A stretch of 61,442 bases of DNA, counting the filler. It is 11 parts of 11 records of this genome, joined end to end, with 100 filler letters (N's around TTAATTAATTAA, not from the genome) between each part and the next. Parts side by side here need not be neighbours in the genome. Positions count along the whole stretch, not along the records: positions 20,306 to 24,118 come from SRR7504441_16099; 10 more parts are not named here. One strand, 5' to 3'. The translations under genes and the position numbers were made by a program. This document shows, one piece after another, positions 4,250 to 51,303 of the stretch. The first letter of the stretch is position 1. Each line of letters opens with the position of its first letter. The notes under the pieces are model-generated. The model was not told the origin of the DNA. It saw nothing but the letters and a program-made list of their open reading frames with translations, and made no database searches.

Positions 4250-4349
4250 NNNNNNNNNNNNNNNNNNNNNNNNNNNNNNNNNNNNNNNNNNNNTTAATTA
4301 ATTAANNNNNNNNNNNNNNNNNNNNNNNNNNNNNNNNNNNNNNNNNNNN
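4250..4349. other. Artificial contig spacer
   Basis: 44 N + TTAATTAATTAA + 44 N. Confidence 0.97.
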
Positions 4350-9416: not shown

Positions 9417-12133
9417 ATGTCTAGCGAGACTGTGGGCGCGGGCTGGCTGATTGCTCGGCGCACGCTGGCCCACTGGACCCGAGCCAAGCTGGCGAAGTTC
9501 AACGACGAGCATCTTGGAGACGGCGGCTGGGACCAGGCTTCCGACGACGCGCTCCGATTGGTGCGCCCCGCCGGATCCGATGGGTTCGGAGGCGAGCGCG
9601 GCGGGCAGGCGGCGTCGTCGGTGATCGAGGCGCACATAGAGCTGAGTTCCAAGGCGGAGGCGGACAAGAAGCACAAAGAGCTTGTGGACAAGCTGGTTAG
9701 TATGAACGCCACCCTCATCGAGGTGATCCTGTGTATTATAATCGAGCTGATCCTGTGCATTAGATAATGAGCCGGCACCCGACCCACCCGCCGGCCCCTG
9801 TGGTGCCCGCGCCACTGCCCACCGTGCCGGCAGTCCTGCCGGCTGCGGGTGCACCAGCGGAGCCCTCCGGCGAGTCCCCGCCGGCGCAGCAAGCAGCTTC
9901 CACCCATTCGGCTCCCCCACCGACCACCGGGAAAAGACCCAAGGTGGTACGCGCGCCTGTCATCTTCAGCTACCAGAGCGGCCAAGTGGACTTCCTCAAG
10001 CAGCTGCGCAAGTGGCTCAACGACCACGGGATCGCCACTGTGGATGGCACTCAGGTTCCCGCCGGGATGGATTGGAGGATATTCTACTTTTCAGCGCTCA
10101 AAAAGGCGCACATCCTGCTCCCGGTGCTCTCGGAGTCGTTTATGTTTTCGCGAGCGTGCGAGTCGGAGCTGACTTACGGGATTGATAAGGGCAAGTCAGT
10201 AATTCCCATCTTATGTGATCCAAAGTACATGGCTGTGCTCTCGGAGCCGGAAAACTATGTGCACATCGACGAGGACATTGAACTGCGCGCCCCAAAAATA
10301 GATATGTTCCTCTCCACCCGAAATCGGTACCCGGCGAATGGTAAATTTGAAGACAACTTTGAGGAGAACGCTCAGGCGCTGCTTGTTCGCATAAAACTAG
10401 AGCTGCAGAGCGCCAAGGCTGACGACTCTAGGAGCGAGGCGCACGGGGAGGGCAAGCTACCCTGGCAGCTAGCCGCTGGGGCCACCGACATTGATAAGAT
10501 GGTCGCCTGCCTCAAGTCAAACTCTGACAGCGCCACTGCGCTTGGAACTCTCAAGGCGCTGCAGCTGCGGCTGTTCGAGCTCGACAAACCGGACGAGAAA
10601 GGCTGCGAGACAGCCATTCTAGCTCAGCCGGCCGAGATCTTGTCTCAGCTGGTGGGCAGCGAGCGGGAAGAGATCCAAGTGATTGCGAGCGACTGCATTA
10701 AGACACTCGCGATGGTCGGGAGTTGGTTTGGACCGGGCTTGCACGAGTTCAGGCAGGCAGCGACAGACGCGAATGTTGTGCCGCGACTGCTAGCGATGAT
10801 GGTTCCTGAATTTTCCAAGGATGCCAAGCACGTGGCAATGATGGCACTCAATTACGTCACGCGCGTGAAGAGCGCTAAACTCTTGGTGGCAAAAAGCTCC
10901 GGGATCCAGAAGCTGATTGCCATGGTTGACGATCCTGATAATACATCGCACTGCAAGGCAGTGGCGCTGGCGATCCTGTGGAACGAGGTGTATGAGCCCG
11001 AGCACAAGGACATCATGATTGAGAGCGGCATAATTGACACTATTGTTCGATACATTCACAACCCGAAGTCAATCGAGGAGGGCCAGAAAAGCTGCTACTT
11101 CATCATGAGCCACCTATCGTACAAGTATCCAGAGCAGGTGAACGATAGCGGGATCGTCGAGTTCGCCCTCGAGGTGATTGGTCAGACGAGCTCGCCTCTA
11201 CCCACCACGTCGCTGCAGACTCTGGAAGGCGCGTGTCGACTGATGGACACGATCGCCGGTAACAGCCAGACGAGGCACACGCTCCCCGCCAAGGGTGCTA
11301 TGCCAATCCTGTTGCATGCGCTCGATCTGAGCACCAACCAATCAGGCGGCTTTAGTGGCTTTAGCAAAGCTTCCATGACGGTCGATGCTAAATCTTCCAT
11401 GACCAATCAGCCGAAAGACGCCTTCAAGATGCGGGCTGCCAATGCATTGAACCACATGGCCAAGGCGCTGCCGGAGGCCGAGCAGGCGGTGTCAGACTAC
11501 CTCGAGCGACTCATTCGCGACCACCGGATAGACGCTTCCGCGCTGGTCTGGTTGTGTGTTCAGCCGACGATTCGAGGATTGATCCTGCGGCGCAGCTCGT
11601 TGATTGAAATGTTCCGCAGTCAAGTTAAGGACAGGATCACGTACGACTTAGCTATCCTGCTGATTGCAATGACAAAATCTGCCGAGAGCTTGGACGAACT
11701 CATTTACACTCAGATAAATGTTCCAGCCGATAGATTACACCCAGCAGGCCCAGCGACGATAGGGGACTTTGTTCTCTCGGTGTTCAGCTGTTCAGGCCAG
11801 GTGCTCTGTGTGAGGTGGGCAATTCTGTGCCAGAGCGTGCGTATAGTCCAGGAGGCCTTGCTCAGTACAACCGGCCAGAGTCGTATTGAGACCAAATTTT
11901 GCCGGAAGTTTGTGACGTGTCTGATAGAGTGGCTGCAAGGCGGGCATCCGTACAAGTTCGACGGGTTAAACACAATCAAAGTGTTGATCAGGAACCGGCA
12001 GCTGCTGGCCCTAGCAGCCGAACTTTTGCAAAGGCAGCCACATAAGCTGTCTGCAGCCACGCAAGAAGCGTTGAAGAGTGGTGCGACAGCAGAGATTGTG
12101 GCTACAGCATGCGAGGAGCTAAGTAGACAATAA
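9417..12133 (+). CDS. TIR_2-domain + armadillo-repeat protein
   Basis: TIR motifs VIFSY..., LLPVLSESFMFSRACESEL, VIPI; ARM-like helices downstream (VVPRLLAMM, GIQKLIAMV, GAMPILLHAL). Intron 9723-9763 joins ORFs 9417..9767 and 9767..12133 in frame. Confidence 0.8.
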
Positions 12134-15179: not shown

Positions 15180-18100
15180 ATGAACCACTGGGCGCAAGCC
15201 ACCGACCCCCAGGGGAACACCTACTTCTACAACACAGAGACCGGGGCCACTAGGTGTGCCAGCCGGGCGTGCCGGTCTTAGCCCTGCCGGTCAGCTGGAC
15301 CAAGCCGGAGGAGCCAGCCGAGCCGAGCCATGAGAGCGGGCTGCCGCCGGGCTGGGAGCAGGGGATGGACCCGACCTCAGGCCTGCCGTACTACATCGAC
15401 CACAACACGCACACCACCCACTGGGAGAAGCCTGCGCCCGCCGCCGTCTACACAGAGACGCAGCTCGACCGGATGGACTCGGACGAGCAGATGCGGCTGG
15501 CGCTCCAGGCCTCAGTAGCGGTGAGCCGGCGGGCACCAGCAGCCAGCTCAGCTGGCCGGGGGGCAGGCCGATACGGCCGCCCCGGAGGTGACCAGACCTC
15601 GGGCAGCCAGCAGCTCGGCGATGGTGAGCAAGGTGACGCCTGTGTGGGCAGCCCTGAGCCGCGGTGTCCAGAACGAGTTGCTGGAGCAGCTGCAAATGCT
15701 ACAGGTCGGCCGGGCGCCGGTGCCGGCTTGACGTATCACTGCAGATAGACGACGAAGACGTGGCCGAGGCAGCTGTTCGCAAGGTGCGCTGCAACACCAG
15801 CACAGCAGTGACGGCCCGAAACTGGCAGGTGGCCCAAATGTGCAATGTGGATGCAAACCGGATACTGCTCCGCGGCGCTGGGGGGATTGAGCTGCTGTGC
15901 AATTCGCTCAGCTCGAACAGCACTACAATCCAAGGCAAGTCGCTGCACTCGTGCCACTGACCCGCGGGCGAGCAGGCCAGGCGTTGCGGGCTCTGGCGAA
16001 TGTAGCCGAGGATCGAGAATACCATCTTGGTATCCAGCAAGGTATAGTGTGGGATGGCGTCAGCTGTTGAGCGCTGGTGCAGCCGGAGGGATCGCACTCC
16101 TGGGACCCCTGCTGTGCAGCACCGATCCGTACGTGACTGAGCAAGCAGCACGCCTAGCAGCCGGTGAGCTGAGGCACTCATTCATGCCCGGCTAGCCTCT
16201 GGGTTAGGCGCGTTGCAATCCAAGGCCATCAGCGAAGCGCTGACAGGCCCGGAGATATTTGTCAGTTTACTCAGGGTGAGCTTACTGCCAGTGTTTGCCG
16301 CTCTAACTCAAAGTGCTGGCAGCTGCACAGCTCCACAACTGGGTCAACTGCTGAGTGGGCTTCGTTGGCGACACAACGGGCCATGCTCTCCAGTGAGGCT
16401 GTTGCAACCCAGCTGGCCAGCTCAGGTGCCAGCGGCCTCTTTCTGAGTCCAATCATTGCTGACTTGTTGAGCCAGGCGCTCTTCCTCTCCTGCTGGCAGC
16501 CATCAACAAACACCTTGGTGATGCCGACTCGATATCGCCACTAGTATCCCTTGTGCTCCGGCACGCAAATTCAGCACCTCAGCAGCCCCCTGTTGATCTC
16601 TCACCATATCTTGGACTACTTGGGAAAGCGAATGCTCAGAATCCTCTTGTGAGCATCATGCAGTGTCTGAGAGCTTTATTGAGCAATTCGAGCATTGCCC
16701 CCTACTTTTCGCAATCAGATGACGTTACTGTGTCTACACTCGTGTCTGCAGGAATGTCCGATGGTGCCGCTCGCAGCCCTGTCGAAATGGTTGAGCTACT
16801 TCAATTCCTCGGCACACTGACAGTCGTCACCCCCACATCAGTACATGCGATGGCTGCTGATCCGAGTGTCACTCAGTTTATTCTGACTGCGCTGCGCTCA
16901 AATGTTCCTGAGGCCACGTCGGCTGCTATAATCCTCATCAAAGGTATTGGTGTTGTGTCTGATGAAGCATGCAGTCAGCTGCTGAACATGGGCGTCTTGC
17001 CACTTTTGTCTGGCCCTCTGGAGGCGGCTCAAGCTGGAAGTGCAGAGCAGGTTGAATTAGCTGTGAGGGCATTGGAAAGCATTTGTGTGCTGATTCAGAA
17101 AGATTGCAGCAAGCTGCGCGTGTTCCTAGAGTCTGCCCAAGCGAGAATGGTGCCACCTCTCCTGCTCAAAGCCGACGATGTCGACGTGGAGAGCCTCAAA
17201 CGTTCAATTACAGCAATGGCCCAGATTGACGAGGTCATTACTCTTGCGGCAATGCTGAATGCTCATCTGGCAGCAGCAATTGTGACGCTGCTTCGTTCAA
17301 CAATGTCCACTACACAGAAGCAGCTTGCAGCGCTGAGCCTTGCTCAGCTCTTTGCGCATCAACTTGAGTTTGCGCAACGGATTGTTGACGCTGACGGAAT
17401 AGCAGCAATGTTGGAACTTCTGAAGTTGAACAACAAGCAGCTGACCGGTGCAGCCCTGCTTGTGATTCATAAAATGCTCTGGCTGCCTCATGCACGGACC
17501 TGCCTTCGGAGTGCAAGCGGGCATGCTATCCTTATCGCTCAACTGTCTCAAAACCAGGAAGCTCTTGGTGTGGTCGCACAGCTAGTACATCATGGCGATG
17601 AGGTTGACCTGTCCAGTTTGCTCAAAGCCAACAATGCCCAGCTGGTACCAGCACTCTTTGCCTACCTGTCCTCTGACAACCCCACCAGCGTTCAAGAGGC
17701 AAGCACTACTTTGACTGCACTTGCCAGTGCCGGTGATTTGTCAGTTTGTTTGGAGGGACTGCAAGTGCCACTTCAGGGTCTCACTGACGGTCTGTTCAAC
17801 CCAACTCCAAGCATCCAGCTTGCCTCTGCCAAATGTCTGGCAGCAATGCCTCTCGATGCTCATGTAGATAATCTGGTCCAAATGGGAACCCTTCAGGGAT
17901 TGATGCAGATGGTCCAATCGTCAGACACTGCCCTGCAGCGATCAGCACTCACAGTGTTGGAGAAACTTTCTCGACTGGCTGACGGTTGTAAGGCCATGGT
18001 CAGTGCCGCTGCGGTGCCTGACATTGCCAAACTGCTTCAGTCACCGCACGCCTTATTGGCTGCTGTAATGTTGCGCCGTTTGGTATCTGATGCCGAGCTT

Positions 18101-20110
18101 GGTGTGGCTGCAGTATTGAAAGGATTCCTTAGCGAATTGGAGGCTATGGTGAGCTTCCTTTGCTAGCTCGGTTGATGCGCAAAGGCTAACTGCGTATTTC
18201 TTGCAGATAGTGCAAAACGCGAATGGCTCCTCGGCTCCTGCAGTCATGTGTGTGGCTGCTATGTTTGTTGAAGGGGTTTTGAGTATCGAGCAATTCATTC
18301 AGAGCCAAGCAGTGATGCTGCTTCATGAGGCGCTCAAGATTCCAATCAACAACCAAGAGATTGAGCGTTCTGACAATTTGCTAGCAGCACAGGCAATGGA
18401 GATTCTTTGTGCTTCAGATGAATCTCAACTCAATGCGCTTGCTGCTCACGAAAATGCTGCCCGAGCGTCAGTGCATGCTGTCCTAGCAATGATGTACTCT
18501 CCCGCTACTTCAATTAGCTCAAGGGGTTTCCAATGCTGTGTAGCCATCACGTTAAACGATGCACTCAGGGCGGTGTGTGCCTGCTAATTGTGTGTGTCAC
18601 CCCCCTGACCTGCTGCTGACCTGACTCTGCCTTTGCCCAGATTCTGCTTGCTACATTGCAAGGTAACCAAAGCTGTGAGCTTTTGATCAAGCGATTGATC
18701 GAAACGCTTGATATCCGTGAACGAGCCAATGATGCCGATTGGGACGATCAAGCCCAGGCACAATCTGACACCGCGCTGGACCTGCTCCGCTCACTGTCAT
18801 CTGAGTCATGCATGCTACAGGCTTTGTGTGAGAATAGTGTCAGCGTGGTAGCCCTTTCTGCCCATCTCGCATCAGCTCGTGATGGGCAGCCAAGGGCTCA
18901 GGCAGCAATGGTGGTGCTGCACGCATTAGCCACGTCAGGTAATGAGCAGATATGGATTACCAACATTGATGGCACTATTACTCAACTGGTCTGTGATGCT
19001 CTAGCTGCTGATGTCAACCTTCAGCACGGTGCAATCGCTGTGCTGTGTTGTTTGGCACGCCACCACAGCGTAGCGCGAACTGTTGCCAACAGCAGTGCAG
19101 TTACAAACCTGGTTTCTGCTTTGGCTGGGACTGCAGGGGAATCCTGTCAGCAAGATGCATTTGTGCTTCTTAAGGAGCTGTCATCTGAAGTAGAGGTTGC
19201 ATTGCAGCTGACACAAAATAATGAAGCAATTCAGGCGCTGGTAGCAAGAGCGCCTGTCGATTTGACACCAGGAGATGTTGCCCCTGCTGAGAGTACAATC
19301 AGCATACTAGCCAATTTGACATCCCAGTGTGAGCCGCTGCGTGAATCTGTAATATCAGCTGGTGTGCTCGATCCAGTGATCAGAGCGTTGGGGCACTCAC
19401 CTGGGCTTGATGAATCTTCATTGCGACTCCTCTCAAACTTGCTCAGAAATGATCAGCATGCAAAATTGATTGTAGATGCTGCTGCTGCACCCAAAATGGC
19501 GACAGCGCTGACTCACAAGTCGCCCAAAGTCCAAGCTTTGGCAATCATAGCTGTCAGCCACCTTTCGATCCATAGCTGTGCTCGAGATGCATTGAGTGCT
19601 TGTGGCGTTGTCCAAGCACTAGTAGGGGTGCTGTCAAGCCACACGGAGAGGGGTGCATTAGGCCAGTTCCAGGCGTTATGGGCACTGCACAACCTTTGCA
19701 TTGACCTGACAAATTCCAATGCATTCTTTGAGGCTGGAGGATGTTCTGTGTTGGAGCAGCTACTAGAGTCTAAGACAGTTGCTGGAGGGGTCGACTCCCT
19801 ATATAAGTTGCATTCCCACTGTGCGGCGTTTGTTGCCTCTTTGTCTATGCAGTCTTGCACAAAGAGTTTACAAGTGGAGCTTAGCTCCGAAAGGTTGCTC
19901 CAGGCATTGAGGAACCTGATGCAATCAACAAACGCGAGTGTTGCATTGAATGCGACAACTGCTTTGCACAACATAGCATCAGATCCACACGCAAGATCAC
20001 AGCTCAAAGCACTAGGGGTCATGAATATTGCACAAAATCTCGTGGGCTCACAAGACGTCATCTTGTCTCAAACCGCGAAACGTCTTTGTAGAACGTTAGG
20101 GTTAGCTTGA
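15180..20110 (+). CDS. Large WW-WW-UIM-armadillo repeat protein, multi-exon
   Basis: WW1 WAQATDPQGNTYFYNTETGATSWTKP (across a 41-nt intron); WW2 LPPGWEQGMDPTSGLPYYIDHNTHTTHWEKP; UIM-like SDEQMRLALQAS; long ARM exons (ORFs 16553..18166, 18201..18587, 18656..20110). Confidence 0.75.
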
Positions 20111-20305: not shown

Positions 20306-23300
20306 GCGTGGTGGTCGACGGGATCCCAGGCTCCGTGATCGGGTGCCTCGTCTTCCACTCGGGCTCGCTACCCAATCACGACCTGCTCTGGCCGCTGGTG
20401 GTGGTCGACCTAGTGGTGCTCGTCGGCATATTCGCGCTGGTGTTCATCCCTGTGTACGGCAAGCAAGACCGGGGCATACTGCACGGTTGCTTGCTCCGCA
20501 GGGACCCAAACTCCAGTGACTCGAGCCTGAGCGACACGCTCCATCTCGGTCGGCTTGGGGGATGGCTGGTCAGTAGTCTGGGCCCCAACACCCCCAGGCG
20601 CCGGATCAGCCGGCAAGGCACCCAATTTGCGTCCGACCAGTCTGAGCTTGCGACCGGGCCGTTGCTCGAGCACCTTGAGGGAGCGGCCGAGCTCCGACAG
20701 GTGGTGCTCGAGCTGCATCGGGTGGTCGCCGACGGAATGGGCTGGCCGCAGCTGACCCAAGCCTCGCTGCCGGACAAGGCGATCAAAGCGCCGCTTGAGC
20801 AGTCGATCGAGCAGCTGCTCAGTGAGCTGCCAGCCTCAGTCGGGGAGGGCTGCGTGTCTGGCATGTCGCTCAGGGAGCAGTTCCGGCTGATCTTGTGGCG
20901 GGCGGCAGTGGCACTGAGCGTGGCAGCGGCGACGCAGGCGCTGCAGGATGTGATCCCGGTTGGGACGTCGGGGACCAGGGAGCTGGTGGAGGCCCAGAGG
21001 GAGATCGAAGCACAGCTGCGCCAGCTGGACACTCTGCGGCGTCGTGAGCCTCAAGACCTCTCGAGGGAAAGCATCGAGCTCGAGAGCAACGCGCTCGAGC
21101 TGCTCCGGCCCAAGGTGAGCTTGCCCGAGTGCCGGCTGAGCCGAGCGGCCAGACGTACGAAAGCGTGCTGCGTGCATCGCGGCTGCTGAGCCTCACTCAG
21201 CTGCACCGCCCCAGGAGCAAACTGGTGCGCTGACCGGCTGGCCGGCTGATCGGATGCAGGCCGGCTCGGATCGCAATTTTTTGCAAGATCTCAAGCTGCA
21301 CAAGGGCCGGATGAGCTACGCCGACGCCGAGCTGCGGCAGCTGCTGTGGCGCGCGTTTCAGTTCGATCTGCTCGAGCTCTGGATCTCGGCGACGCTGCTC
21401 GCACTGATCGCGAGTGGGAGCATGCCTCCATACACCCGGGATGACAAGCTGTACACCTGGCCTCCGGGCACCTGGTGTGCATTCCAGAACCTGGTCAACT
21501 CTTTCATCATCGTCCAGATCTTCCTTCTGCTCCCTGTGAGTCTCAGCGCGGCCAGGCTCACGCGGCCGGGCAGATTCAGGGAGGGATACTCATCAAGCCG
21601 TGCTGGGGTCAGCGCGGCGCCTGGACCGACGCTGAGCGCAGCTCTGGCTACCGCGGGCTACAGGCGGGCAAGATTGACCTTGAGCCCGGGCTGCGGCGGA
21701 GCGACGACGAGCCCCCTATGCTCGACTTGCAGCTGGTGGTGGACGCACTGGTGGTGGCGCACACCAAATTGCACAAGTCACGGTTCAAGGACTGGATGCG
21801 GTATGGCCGGATGCGGCGCGAAATTCGGGAGGGGATCGACTGCGTGTGGGAGGCGGGCCCAGACTGCCTGATTCTCAACCTGGGCGACTGCTGGGCTGTA
21901 TCGTTCTCCGGCAGCTACCGGACCGAGCACTACGTAGCTGTTATGGAGGTGCTAGCTTTGAGGGGGCAGCGAGCTTAGTATGGCGCCTGCAGGTGGAGCA
22001 GACCACATACGCCCCAACTAGCGAGCTGGAGCAGCCTGGTGAGTTGGTGCACCTCGGGTTCATGGAGCACTACAAGCGCATCCGCGGGCTGCTCCTAGAT
22101 AAACTCGACGAGCTCGGGGTAAGCTGGCGCTCGGTCAGGCCCCAACGTGGGCTGCAGGCACTCAGGCTGCTCAAGGAATCCGGCAGACCGCTGCTACTGT
22201 GTGGGCACTCTCTAGGAGGCGCGGCAGCTACGCTGGCAGCTCGCGAGTTCCTGCTGCTCGACCCTGAATGGGCCGAGAACAATGGTGACATCTCTGCTGC
22301 CTACCCAGCTGGCCGCCTGAGCCGGGTTGTCCAGTTGTGCTGGTGACATTTGGTGCCCCAAAGTGCGGCAATCGCGCCTTCTGTGAGCCGATGAAGCAGC
22401 TTCGGAACAGCCTTCGGTGTGCAGTGGCAACCGATCTGATCCCGCACCTGCCACCGACCCCATTCAGTTTCTGCAAGATGTGGATATTGTTCTGCTTGAT
22501 CAAGTCCTGCTTATGGATCTTTGCAAAGCAGCCCAAGCGTTCCATCGAAACCAAGACAGAGTGCTGCGGCGGCTGGCTGCCCTGCAAGTGGGAATACGTG
22601 CACGTGCACGACCAGCCGGACGTGCTGCTGTGCACTGACGGGATGATCCACTTTCGTCCGCTGTGTCCTCCACTTCTGGTGCCAGAGGTGCTGGCCATGT
22701 GCGGTCCAAGGGTAATCTGGGGTGGCAGGTCAACTCTGGACCGAACATGCTGCTGCACAGCTTGAACCTGCAGCACAAACCCAAGCATTATATGCAGGCC
22801 CTGTACAACTGGGCAACCCACGTTCACGCCTCCGAGCTGACGCAGAGTCCGGACTACAGAGCGATGCTCGAGTAGCAGACTGCCACTGGCCTTGTGATTG
22901 TTTGGGTGCCAGGTTCTGTGCCAAGATGAAACAGAAGGCGATGGTTGGATGCTCCTACTGTGGCGGGGTCGGTGACACTTGCGGTGCGCCCGAGCCCGGG
23001 CTTTGCCCAACTAAGGTGGGTTCAGGCATTTCGGACTGCTGGCTGACCCGAGAGCTGATTGAGCAGCACCGCGGCTCCACACCCGCAAACACAGTCGGCA
23101 TTCTGGCCGGATGCAACTCGCCGGCTGAGGCAGAATTCGCCAGACAGCTTGCTGCAGAGCTTCGCCTGCGGCACGAGAAGACTTCGCACCTCGGCGGCAT
23201 CGCCGTGCTCACCGTTTCGCTAGATGACGAAGACGAGTATACCGAGTTTGGCGATATCTTTGCTTTGGAGTACAATGATCTGAAGTACAAGGAGAAAGAG

Positions 23301-24047
23301 GGTGATCCGGCGGATCAGATCGATCCGGAAGTGTATTGCCTGTCCAACACGAGCCAGCACCACAGCTGCTGTGGTTCGAGCAGCGGGCAGCTTCAGGTGA
23401 TCATGTCTCGCTACCCGATACTCGGAATGCTCCAGGTCTGCAGCTGCGTGCTCGTCGCTGCAGGCGAGTCCGGGGGGCCAACCAATCAAGCCCTTACCGA
23501 GTGCGGCGAGGAGCTCTGTCATCGGAAACTCCTCTGCGTGTCCAAGTTTGGTGGCTGTGGCCGAGATGTAGCCAACTGGCTTGGGATGCACGGTGCGAGC
23601 TTGCGCCGGGTTGATACGACCACCCCTATGTCGACATCCAACCCGTTCACACAGCCGGAGATCGAGGAGCTATGCAACTCACTCTTGGGCTTTGACACCG
23701 AGGGCCGGTGGACGGGTCCGGATGAGAGCATTTGGGACTCGCCGCCAACCAACAGATCATCATTTGGCCTAAGGAGGACGCTTTCTGATATGGACGGCGG
23801 TTTGTTCGAACCTGTCTTCGACAGCTTGCGGGGGGCGCGCAGAACTTCGGTCTGGGACGACGAGACTGAGATAGAACGACTCTATTATGCCAGCGAGGTG
23901 ACTCAGACACCATCCTCTCGAAATCCGGAGCCAACTACTAGTAGACCTTCTTTTATAGGGGCTATCGATTCCCGGCTCGCCTCAAGGCCTGAGAGTGGTG
24001 ATGCCGATGCCACACCGGTAGTAACATTACCAGTAGATCAAGTTTAA
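20306..24047 (+). CDS. Membrane-anchored class 3 lipase with C-terminal SLOG-like domain (5' truncated)
   Basis: TM segments; VHLGF, LCGHSLGGAAATL, LVTFGAPKCGN, DLIPHLPP, H..KHY. The 41-nt GT-AG intron 22872-22912 removes the TAG and continues into the frame of ORF 22722..24047. Confidence 0.75.
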
Positions 24048-32608: not shown

Positions 32609-35422
<2,814 letters not shown>

Positions 35423-35593
35423 CTTGGCCGAGAGCCCCGCGGCGGTGAACAAGAGGCCTGTGCGGCCGCGGTGCTGCTCGGGAGGCCAGACGCTGGGCGC
35501 TCGCTTTGTTTTCCGTTGCTGTGCCTCGCTGAGAGGGGCCATACGAAGATGTACTGATGCAGCGCTACGATTTGAGAGCGGCGCCGACGCGAC

Positions 35594-36086
35594 ATGTCGC
35601 TGGAAGCTCTGCGCTCGGTTCGCGGGACCCGGATGTTCTCCTCCGCCTTCGTGGCCCGGCTGCTCCTGGCCGACTCATCTCAGCCGCCGGCGCTGCATCT
35701 GGACCGGCGCCCGGAGCCGGAGCCGGAGCTTAGCGCGCTGTGGGCGGCCACCGACGGGCAGGAGTCGCTGCCGAGCTCGCCGCGATGGCGGCCTGAGATG
35801 AACCCAGGCAATCAGCATCTGCGGTGGGGGAGCTAGCCGGCTGGGCAGGTCGGCAGCCGGACGGGGAGTTCTCGGAGCAGATGCGGCATGTGTTTGAGCG
35901 AAGGGTTAAGATGCTGCTCCGACCAGCCAGGCTCGGGAGTGGCGAGAGCAACCTGCAGGCAGTCGGGGCGGACCGGCGGGGCTGACCGGCGGGCAGTTGC
36001 TGGCTGAGCTGAAGTGGCGGCAGCACGAGGCTCGGCTTCGGGTATGCGAGACGCTGATCGACAGGACCGGGCCGGAAGCCGCCTGA
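35594..36086 (+). CDS. Hypothetical multi-exon protein; 3' end unresolved
   Basis: ATG divergent from CDC5; two plausible GC-AG introns keep the frame open. Confidence 0.3.
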
Positions 36087-49228: not shown

Positions 49229-50037
49229 TACGGATGTTCTCCAAGACCGCCCTGGCGTCCTTCGCGCGGTCTGCATCTTTCCCCAAATATATTTCAAAGC
49301 TAATACAACGCCGAACTACGTATAATTGTAAACATGAATTTTACTTGAAGCATTTTCGCGACTACAGGCATCGGGTCTACTCGTACTAGTAGATTTAGCC
49401 AAACCTCGAGCCAGCGCCTGTCGACCCGTCCGCACGTGGAGACAACCAGCGGTAGCCAGGTGAGCCCGCTGAGTGTCTTGGCAGCCGGCACCTGGCACCG
49501 GCAGTCAGAGGCCGCAACCGGCCGAGGCGGCGGCCGGCAGGCTGAGGGAGCGCTCAGGGCAAGAATGACATTCACTGTTATTCGTCAGGGCAGCGCCAGT
49601 TCGGAATTAGCATGGTTAGTTTGTGGCATCACGGCGCAGTTGGCATACGGGCCTAGTCGGCAGGCTAGGCACCTTTGGTCGCCGCTCACCCGCCACCTGG
49701 CCGTCGCTCGCACCTGACCAAGCCACATCAGAAGAGCCCCGGCCTGACCGGCAGGGGAAGGGCGGGGGGGTCTCTCAGACGCGAGTGAGAAGGCCATCTC
49801 CGCAAGGCCGCCGAGTGGGTTCAATCGCTCAGCAGCCAGGCGAAGCGCGGGCGCGCGCGAATGCGGAACGAGTCCCGCAAGCGAACAGCAACTCGCCGGC
49901 CACAAGAGCACTCACAATTCATCATCGAGACCGCAGGCCGACACGAAGCCAGGCTGCCGCTCACCGCGTGTCGAGCGAGCGTCGAGCGGAGCCGTTGGCG
50001 AGGCTGAGCGGGGCCGGGCAGAGCAGGTCTTCGAGCC

Positions 50038-51303
50038 ATGGCGGCGGCCACGATGGAGGACTTGTTCGGGGATTCGGACGAGGATGCCCCGCCGGCTCAG
50101 GCCGAGCCGGCGGCAGCGAAGCCAACCATGGAAGACCTGTTCGGGGACGAGGAAGAGGAGGAGCCGCAGCCCGCGGCCGGGGGACCGAGCATGGAGGCGC
50201 TGTTCGGAGAGGAGGACGACGAGCCGGATGCGGCGCGGGATGATAAGGGCGGGGCCTCCATGCAAGATCTTTTCGGTTCGGACTCGGACAACGACAAGTC
50301 CGGGGAGGAGGACGAAGACGCCGAAGACGCCGACCGCCAGCCGGAGCCGGAGCCGATCCAGCGGCAGCTGATCGAGGCGCCCGAGCTGCCGCGGCCGAGC
50401 ACGGAGCAGCTGAGCGTGATGCGGCTGCCCCAGTTTCTCGGTGTCAAAACTGACCCGTTCGACCCAGCGCTCTGGACCGAGGAAAGCGACCTCGACGCCG
50501 GGACCGACGCCGCGGTGGGGGTGGGCCGGGAGAATATCGTGCGTTGGCGGTGGCACCAAGGGCCGGACGGTGTGCCGGTGCGCCAGTCGAACACCAGGCT
50601 GGTCAAATGGTCGGACGGCTCAATCCAGCTAATGATTGGGAATGAGAGGATGGACGTGATCGAGGAAGCAGCGCCCAAGAACATGCAGCTCTGGGGGCGG
50701 CACGACGCGAGCAATGTGCTCGAGTGTCATGGGATGGTCCGTCGGAAGCTCCTGGTCAAGACTGGGGGGCTGACGAGCAGCGCTCACCGGCGGATGAGTG
50801 CGCGACTTGAGAAAGAGAACGAGACGCGGCATAGGGGCGCCAAGGTGGTAATCGTGAACGAGAACCCTGAGGCGGAGCACGAGCGCAAGGAGCGGGAGCG
50901 GGACGAGTTGATCAAGTCGCGCGAGCAGCTAGCCGCCAAGCAGGACAGCCTGCGCAAGCAGTGGGACCCGATGGACCCTGGCTTCCTGGAGGACACGCAT
51001 GGCCGGACTCCGCGGGACCCGTTTGGCCGGCAGCGCGGCGGACGGACTGGGGTGCTCGATGACGACTCGGAGGAGGAGGAGGAGGAGGGGATTGGCGTGC
51101 TTGATGACGATACGCCGAGGGATACTGGGGTACTGGATGATGATGAGCACGATGTGCAGGAGGAGCCCGCGGAGCTTCCGCCCGACCCCGAGGCTGAAGA
51201 AGCCGAGGCGGAGGACGATGATGACGAGGATGAACCTGCCGCACTCGGGAACAGGGCGCGCAAGCGGCAGAGGATCGATGACGATGATGAGGACGATGAG
51301 TAG
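50038..51303 (+). CDS. LEO1: PAF1 complex subunit Leo1, intronless
   Basis: Acidic DLFG repeats; LPQFLGV..DPFDP; ENIVRWR; SNTRLVKWSDGSIQLMIGNE. Confidence 0.92.
   Translation: MAAATMEDLFGDSDEDAPPAQAEPAAAKPTMEDLFGDEEEEEPQPAAGGPSMEALFGEEDDEPDAARDDKGGASMQDLFGSDSDNDKSGEEDEDAEDADRQPEPEPIQRQLIEAPELPRPSTEQLSVMRLPQFLGVKTDPFDPALWTEESDLDAGTDAAVGVGRENIVRWRWHQGPDGVPVRQSNTRLVKWSDGSIQLMIGNERMDVIEEAAPKNMQLWGRHDASNVLECHGMVRRKLLVKTGGLTSSAHRRMSARLEKENETRHRGAKVVIVNENPEAEHERKERERDELIKSREQLAAKQDSLRKQWDPMDPGFLEDTHGRTPRDPFGRQRGGRTGVLDDDSEEEEEEGIGVLDDDTPRDTGVLDDDEHDVQEEPAELPPDPEAEEAEAEDDDDEDEPAALGNRARKRQRIDDDDEDDE

Follow-up and report, generated by a model that had tools for sequence, protein, structure and literature searches.

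A predicted membrane-anchored class-3 lipase carrying a near-orphan C-terminal domain in DNA of probable marine eukaryotic origin

Introduction

Fungal class-3 lipases are secreted enzymes. In plants, EDS1, PAD4 and SAG101 take part in a response to TIR products; this family senses via the groove of its EP-domain heterodimer, and its lipase triad is dispensable. The SLOG superfamily was reportedly defined by Burroughs and colleagues in 2015. In type I Thoeris, 3' cyclic ADP-ribose (3'cADPR) binds the SLOG domain of ThsA and activates this effector, according to a preprint (bioRxiv 10.64898/2025.12.03.692087). DAGL alpha and beta possess four N-terminal transmembrane helices, a lipase-3 domain and a variable C-terminal extension, as described in PMC2173631. 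Here we report on a gene found in a stretch of DNA of 61,442 bases (the window), in which eleven contigs of ~3-9 kb each are separated by ten linkers (44 N + TTAATTAATTAA + 44 N) lying between positions 4250 and 53394. The gene sits on the contig at 20306-24118. Our best explanation, which as a whole we hold to be moderately probable, is that it encodes a membrane-anchored class-3 lipase followed by a cysteine-rich linker, a lineage-restricted alpha/beta domain of ~190 residues and a disordered tail, and that the gene is genuine, belongs to the nucleus of an uncultured marine eukaryote, and is both transcribed and spliced.

An earlier note on this DNA had proposed an intact, membrane-bound lipase, fused through an intron to a SLOG-like domain and possibly gated by a nucleotide as a cell-death or immune effector. 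The lipase and the fusion are examined first and the identity of the appended domain thereafter. The contigs were merely concatenated; apparent neighbours in the window are therefore unlinked in the genome, and the other contigs do not represent the neighbourhood of the gene.

Results

The lipase part

By its sequence, the protein is a class-3 lipase with intact Ser and Asp motifs. Pfam Lipase_3 (PF01764) matches two of the seven scanned frames, with 29.2 bits for the frame carrying GHSLGG and 29.9 bits for the next frame (cut-off 22 bits); between them these matches span 17-85 and 93-138 of the 140 profile positions. The nucleophile elbow GHSLGG (22203-22220) aligns to GHSLGAA of the fungal mono/diacylglycerol lipase 5ch8 in a weak match, and around the Ser the protein comes closest, among solved sequences, to mono/diacylglycerol and triacylglycerol lipases of fungi. 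In the Thermomyces-type lipase (5ap9/1dt3), SYGAPRVGNRAF...NDIVPRLPP is the aligned counterpart of the strand TFGAPKCGNRAF...TDLIPHLPP (E-value (E) 0.0023), and we take the aligned Asp to be the catalytic residue of the solved enzyme. The intact GHSLGG lipase of the earlier note is borne out by these matches, with both Lipase_3 scores above the cut-off.

Two hydrophobic helices with Kyte-Doolittle (KD) values of 1.64 and 2.18 lie N-terminal to the catalytic domain, and the ~90 residues inserted between the Asp and the presumed His contain a hydrophobic 19-mer (KD 1.79) and many cysteines. The product thus read probably has at least two hydrophobic, membrane-spanning helices. The hydrophobic segments are consistent with the membrane attachment claimed previously, and anchoring itself is a probable property deduced from hydropathy. 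The last lipase exon gave no PDB or Pfam match and no alignment to any lipase.

Short introns probably join the lipase to the downstream domain

The lipase is split over three reading frames. Short GT..AG introns at 21949-21992 (44 nucleotides, nt), at 22285-22334 (50 nt), in one of several variants within 22679-22773, and at 22872-22912 (41 nt) can join all of them into one open frame that runs to a TAA at 24045-24047, and the frame-restoring GT..AG introns of the gene span 41-62 nt. Contigs from 4 of 18 runs, three RNA and one DNA, were compared with the gene. One oligo-dT RNA contig (run X13) skips exactly the 44 nt of 21949-21992, the shorter of its two flanks being 53 nt long; the gene is therefore transcribed and introns of the 41-62 nt class are spliced. 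Further contigs from RNA libraries cover 21583-21816 and 21610-21760 (X12, X13) and 23492-23796 (X6). All three exonic differences seen in related contigs (21936, 22848 and 22937) are synonymous, and a difference at 22887 falls inside intron 22872-22912; the related DNA contig (X1) carries this intronic difference together with 22848 and 22937, which are synonymous on either side of the junction.

Removing 22872-22912, which starts with GT and ends with CAG, joins ...YRAMLE to FCAKMKQ... in frame, and all eight frame-compatible GT-AG pairs (30-150 nt) around the junction give a fusion of lipase and domain. We consider it highly probable that the lipase is fused in frame to the C-terminal domain, with 22872-22912 as the candidate intron. 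The intron had been put forward as the point of fusion on the basis of the letters alone; the frame-restoring GT..CAG signature and the agreement of all eight pairs sustain the fusion, while the RNA contigs do not reach the junction, and the use of this particular intron stays a prediction. The strings quoted in support of the domain (VGILAG, AEFARQLAAEL, IAVLT, SRYPILGML..CSCVLVAAG..GGPT and KLLCVSKFGGCGRDV) are all present in frame from 22914.

A nearly orphan C-terminal domain

A phmmer search of 1,835,955,588 representatives returned two matches, of which the real one, P0002 (337 residues), has an E of 8.6e-27 and 36-39% identity; the 90% cluster of P0002 holds one more member, P0004 (340 residues). 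This homologue and its variant indicate that the domain is real coding sequence. The second match, P0003, is a repeat protein aligned over an acidic stretch only and was rejected as spurious. Homology to P0002 begins at DCWLTR (23034) and runs for ~190 residues, and the Cys-rich linker and the tail are not common to both proteins.

Further searches for relatives point to a domain that is nearly orphan and lineage-restricted. Word-indexed searches confirmed 0 of 5,438 and 0 of 6,556 candidates, and among another 2,455 only P0002 itself. A scan of JGI metagenomes gave 100 pattern matches and one of IMG/VR gave nine, none of them confirmed; no paralogue of the domain turned up in the window by tblastn, and the ESM Atlas yielded no usable match. 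Pfam, PADLOC, NCBIfam and PHROGs (E<=10) assigned no family to the domain and returned chance-level rows only (DUF2866, DUF2786, a coniferyl-alcohol dehydrogenase model and phrog_14451), which were discarded. A sequence search of the PDB produced a discoidin-receptor row at E 0.71, which is no result. An acetyl-CoA synthase alpha row (E 0.23) aligns to a Cys-Gly-Cys stretch (P0002 residues 129-150) that is absent from the window protein, and was judged to be chance.

Comparison with P0002 places invariant residues in three loops, each following a predicted strand: G62, G66 and P70, behind the first strand; G184, E185, G187, G188, T190, Q192 and A193; and G213 and G214. The third predicted strand (VYCL) is followed by a variable, Cys-rich insert in which SCC is the sole common motif, itself lost in P0004. 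Cysteine makes up 4.6% of the lipase region, 12.8% of the linker and 5.6% of the domain; for eleven further long frames in the window the figure is 2.3%. This richness would suit a lumenal or extracellular protein, disulfide-bonded or metal-binding, and argues mildly against a cytosolic sensor. Another Cys-rich product of the bin is encoded on a different part of the window by a 411-codon frame (34566-35798, plus strand; 5.6% Cys), which has no Pfam family.

Tests of a SLOG fold

SLOG is one candidate superfamily for the domain, judged from the succession of its predicted elements. The way in which strands, Gly-rich loops and helices follow one another, and the GE.GG.T.QA loop after a strand, presumably recall the LOG/ThsA pattern. 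For the comparison, SLOG was defined (SLOG/TIR/DrHyd) as in section 3.3.3 of PMC9503650. No Pfam family of the SLOG clan was found for the window domain or for P0002 at E<=10, and PADLOC, including its ThsA model, and NCBIfam likewise gave none.

Reference alignments for hhalign were built from genomes for LOG (29 sequences), DprA (30) and STALD (2; seen in 2 of 401 genomes), with adenylate kinase (ADK), CheY and GT1 as controls (30 sequences each). LSDAT_prok, found below the cut-off in 1 of 301 genomes, and one LOG locus of the 30 (L111), broken by stops, were left out. Against LOG, the domain reached P 0.0027 with a probability of 11%, over the first strand and helix only; against DprA the values were P 0.028 and 1.8%, and against STALD P 0.5 and 0.1%. 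The controls gave P 0.21 (ADK), 0.11 (CheY) and 0.17 (GT1), and the reversed query 0.16-0.52. In the best DprA alignment the first strand of the query pairs with a later DprA strand, and in the alternative alignment with an earlier one. From a query profile of two sequences, which leaves room for remote homology, these values show a faint lean to the SLOG families that lies below what counts as evidence.

The AlphaFold2 model, computed from a two-sequence alignment, orders the elements as strand-helix-strand-helix-...-helix-strand-helix-strand-helix, with Gly-rich loops after three strands. In a Foldseek search of the PDB with the domain model, no match had an E below 0.15. The combination of AlphaFold and Foldseek had been suggested as the check on the fold; it returned no significant SLOG match, and a model with a mean predicted local distance difference test (pLDDT) of 44.5 is too poor to decide the matter. 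The earlier statement that the element order matches SLOG domains is therefore reduced to a resemblance, given the lack of any SLOG-clan match at E<=10 and the hhalign probabilities.

Gene model

The features of the gene are listed in Table 1. Intron 2 has an alternative at 22247-22308 that keeps both GHSLGG and the TFGAPKCGN strand and adds unmatched residues. With intron 3 as 22688-22728 or 22679-22728 the LLHSL sequence (His codon 22756-22758) is kept, and with intron 3 as 22712-22773 the exon opens with HKPKHY. The LLHSL retained by two of these variants resembles the His motif of lipases.

At the 5' side, the frame open from the contig edge also has a helical Glu/Leu/Gln-rich stretch, and its junction to exon 21311..21535 is ambiguous; it could hold 5' exons of the lipase gene, or it could be where another gene, lying upstream, has its 3' end. 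Within 20397-20644 the X1 DNA contig departs from it by four substitutions (I>T, Q>L, L>P, L>P), each in the second position of its codon and separated from the others by multiples of three, and by a 1-nt deletion at 20591. In none of the open frames do all four substitutions fall on wobble positions. The coding status of 20308..21114 is doubtful.

Table 1. Predicted features of the lipase-fusion gene, in window coordinates.
Feature	Position	Strand	Remarks
Upstream open frame	20308..21114	+	807 nt, open from contig 5' edge; hydrophobic helix KD 2.94; no Pfam family
Exon with first in-frame ATG (21311)	21311..21535	+	Two transmembrane-like hydrophobic segments, KD 1.64 and 2.18; GTGAGT donor follows at 21536
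Probable intron, 38 or 44 nt	21536..21579	+	Acceptor 21573 or 21579, both in frame; RNA contigs begin downstream (21583, 21610)
Exon, pre-lipase region and first lipase-fold strand (...AVSFSGS...)	21580..21948	+	RNA contigs X12 and X13 on parts
Intron 1, 44 nt, GT..AG	21949..21992	+	RNA-confirmed (X13)
Lipase exon with GHSLGG (Ser codon 22209-22211)	21993..22284	+	Lipase_3 E 1e-06, profile 17-85/140; weak 5ch8 match
Predicted intron 2, 50 nt, GT..AG	22285..22334	+	Most direct join of both Lipase_3-matching stretches among frame-compatible pairs
Lipase exon, Asp motif (codon 22433-22435) and hydrophobic Cys-rich insert	22335..22711 (end 22687 or 22711)	+	Lipase_3 E 6.1e-07, profile 93-138/140
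Intron 3 region	22688..22773	+	Variants 22688-22728 (41 nt), 22679-22728 (50 nt), 22712-22773 (62 nt); all in frame
Last lipase exon	22729..22871 (start 22729 or 22774)	+	His candidates 22756-22758, 22774-22776, 22786-22788
Predicted junction intron, 41 nt, GT..CAG	22872..22912	+	Frame-restoring; size class as RNA-confirmed intron; first bases overlap TAG 22873-22875
Cys-rich linker, 5 Cys/39 residues	22913..23033	+	Absent from the homologue's predicted protein
Near-orphan alpha/beta domain (predicted)	23034..23690	+	DCWLTR... to helix ...EIEELCNSL; homologue P0002; element order from low-confidence AlphaFold2 model
Low-complexity Ser/Thr/Pro/Asp-rich tail and TAA (24045-24047)	23691..24047	+	From translation; X6 contigs on 23492-23796

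Source of the DNA and the other contigs

The public runs with parts of the lipase contig come from metagenomes and metatranscriptomes of marine or aquatic origin, and none has a word share above 0.12. On another contig, the plus-strand frame 50008-51300 encodes a Leo1-like domain (E 1e-35), a subunit of the Paf1 complex, which supports a eukaryotic origin of the bin. A third contig carries a 789-codon plus-strand frame (9764-12130) with TIR_2 (E 6.1e-11, residues 66-165) followed by armadillo (ARM) repeats; the bin thus encodes a TIR-ARM protein, on a contig unlinked to the lipase gene. Two long plus-strand frames on one contig, 16463-18163 and 18620-20107, show repeats of the armadillo/ARM_PUB/ARMC5 type and may be exons of one large gene.

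Discussion

Proposed function and its weak points

In the explanation favoured here, the lipase part would hydrolyse an ester of a membrane or neutral lipid, and the C-terminal domain would be a regulatory or ligand-binding module. The latter role is suggested because the conserved glycines and polar residues lie in loops after strands, where Rossmann-like domains bind ligands; the conserved Gly-rich loops might then form a ligand site.

Several findings weigh against this explanation. The region 22044-23491, with the key intron and two other lipase introns, is covered by none of the five RNA contigs. The gene may begin at ATG 21311 or be truncated by the edge of the contig, and the upstream frame may be part of a different gene. 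The catalytic His is a candidate by position, and its choice depends on the intron-3 variant. The fold assigned to the domain comes from an AlphaFold2 model with a mean pLDDT of 44.5 and a predicted template modelling score of 0.49, the other four models having 33-35, and P0002 as the target reached a pLDDT of 35.6. Conservation was judged from two sequence clusters (three closely grouped sequences), which are too few to define a motif, and the regulatory role of the domain is argued by analogy, since added domains or tails regulate other lipases. The predicted proteins of the homologues begin right at the domain, so that the domain may also occur without a lipase.

Alternative explanations

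One alternative is a reading without fusion, in which 22872-22912 is retained, the lipase stops at the TAG, and the domain is either a separate product starting at ATG 22926 or untranslated. No RNA contig crosses the junction, the in-frame ATG lies 12 nt past the proposed acceptor, and both P0002 and P0004 were called as proteins on their own; these calls were, however, made on metagenome contigs (4.1 and 8.9 kb), where a single exon is easily taken for a whole protein. The downstream frame is moreover already open from 22716, well before that ATG, and the gene has several introns of 41-62 nt, one of them RNA-confirmed. The distance of 50 nt from the TAG (22873-22875) to the next in-frame ATG (22926) appears implausibly short for a eukaryotic intergenic region and would leave no room for a 3' end and a promoter, which supports a fusion over two genes. 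We regard the reading with two separate products as decidedly unlikely. In another alternative, the domain would be a Cys-rich module with a structural, metal-binding or redox role, in a lipase that is lumenal or extracellular, serving stability, oligomerisation or attachment to a substrate or surface. Eleven cysteines in the 196-residue domain and five in the 39-residue linker are in line with this, as is the conservation of 7 of the 11 in P0002 at an overall identity of 36%; the lipase is also Cys-rich, the solved enzymes nearest to it are the secreted class-3 lipases of fungi, and the N-terminal hydrophobic helices could act as a signal anchor. The poor AlphaFold confidence would fit a cofactor- or disulfide-dependent fold, which is a weak argument. 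Yet one of the seven conserved cysteines, in the SCC pair, is lost in P0004, the Gly-rich loops are the most conserved part, no metal-binding motif is recognisable, and the sole similarity to a metal enzyme, acetyl-CoA synthase alpha, is at chance level. Such a module seems unlikely, if worth keeping in mind.

Quite unlikely, in our judgement, is a SLOG sensor of an ADP-ribose-derived or other nucleotide, for instance one made by a TIR protein, that switches on a membrane lipase, the lipase being an effector of cell death or immunity. Of the six families aligned, LOG and DprA, the SLOG families with good sampling, gave the lowest hhalign P-values; a TIR_2-ARM protein is encoded in the same bin, and binding of 3'cADPR to the SLOG domain of an effector is described for type I Thoeris in the preprint (bioRxiv 10.64898/2025.12.03.692087). 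Against these stand the lack of any SLOG-clan Pfam, PADLOC ThsA or NCBIfam match at E<=10; the low hhalign probabilities, which cover one strand-helix unit with an inconsistent DprA pairing; the Foldseek search; a cysteine content (4.6-12.8% vs 2.3%) that suggests disulfides or metal sites and not a cytosolic sensor; and the location of the TIR gene on an unlinked contig. The SLOG label together with nucleotide gating is accordingly placed between improbable and very improbable, and a role in immunity or cell death would be a further conjecture. The full version, by which a diverged SLOG-type sensor of a TIR-made ADP-ribose signal would switch a eukaryotic membrane-anchored class-3 lipase, is drawn by analogy and appears very unlikely. 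The preferred explanation is still the membrane-anchored lipase with a lineage-restricted alpha/beta domain of regulatory or ligand-binding character.

Significance

Were the domain a nucleotide sensor, the gene would represent a new effector architecture, a eukaryotic lipase gated by a signalling nucleotide, and would open a way into the TIR-type signalling of marine protists; with a TIR-made signal it would be a lipase effector arm that unites the logic of ThsA with the lipase scaffold found in plant EDS1. As it stands, the protein is a known enzyme in a new domain combination with an almost unique appended domain, and its main use is to draw attention to a domain family that occurs in two clusters only among ~15 billion predicted proteins. 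It also serves as a warning that a SLOG fold is not established by motif order alone.

Comparison with known systems

A full-text literature search found no paper on a lipase-SLOG fusion, and published SLOG architectures with lipases may exist. With ThsA (SIR2 + SLOG/STALD), the window protein shares a logic only, that of an effector enzyme followed by a C-terminal alpha/beta domain with Gly-rich loops; it is not ThsA, having no SIR2 domain and no STALD match. EDS1, PAD4 and SAG101 likewise join a class-3 lipase-like domain to a C-terminal partner domain. As judged from its domains, the window protein is not a member of the EDS1 family: it keeps the Ser and Asp motifs, and no EP domain was found in the 443-residue downstream frame, which matched no Pfam family at E<=1.

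Fungal class-3 lipases of the Thermomyces lanuginosus and Rhizomucor miehei type (1dt3, 4tgl, 5ch8) belong to the same Lipase_3 family and share the GHSLG elbow and the Asp strand (G)AP.vGN...D.vP.LPP. They are single-domain proteins of ~270 residues, to which the window protein adds the N-terminal hydrophobic helices, the ~90-residue insert between Asp and His, and ~380 C-terminal residues.

The closest architecture is that of DAGL alpha and beta, with membrane helices followed by a lipase-3 domain and a C-terminal extension. We know of no DAGL tail that holds a folded alpha/beta domain. Compared with the DAGL proteins, two helices are clear in the window protein, and one more would be added only if the doubtful upstream frame belongs to the gene. 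The spacing from Ser to Asp is similar in kind, ~52 residues in DAGL beta (S443, D495; PMC2173631) vs 58 in the window protein.

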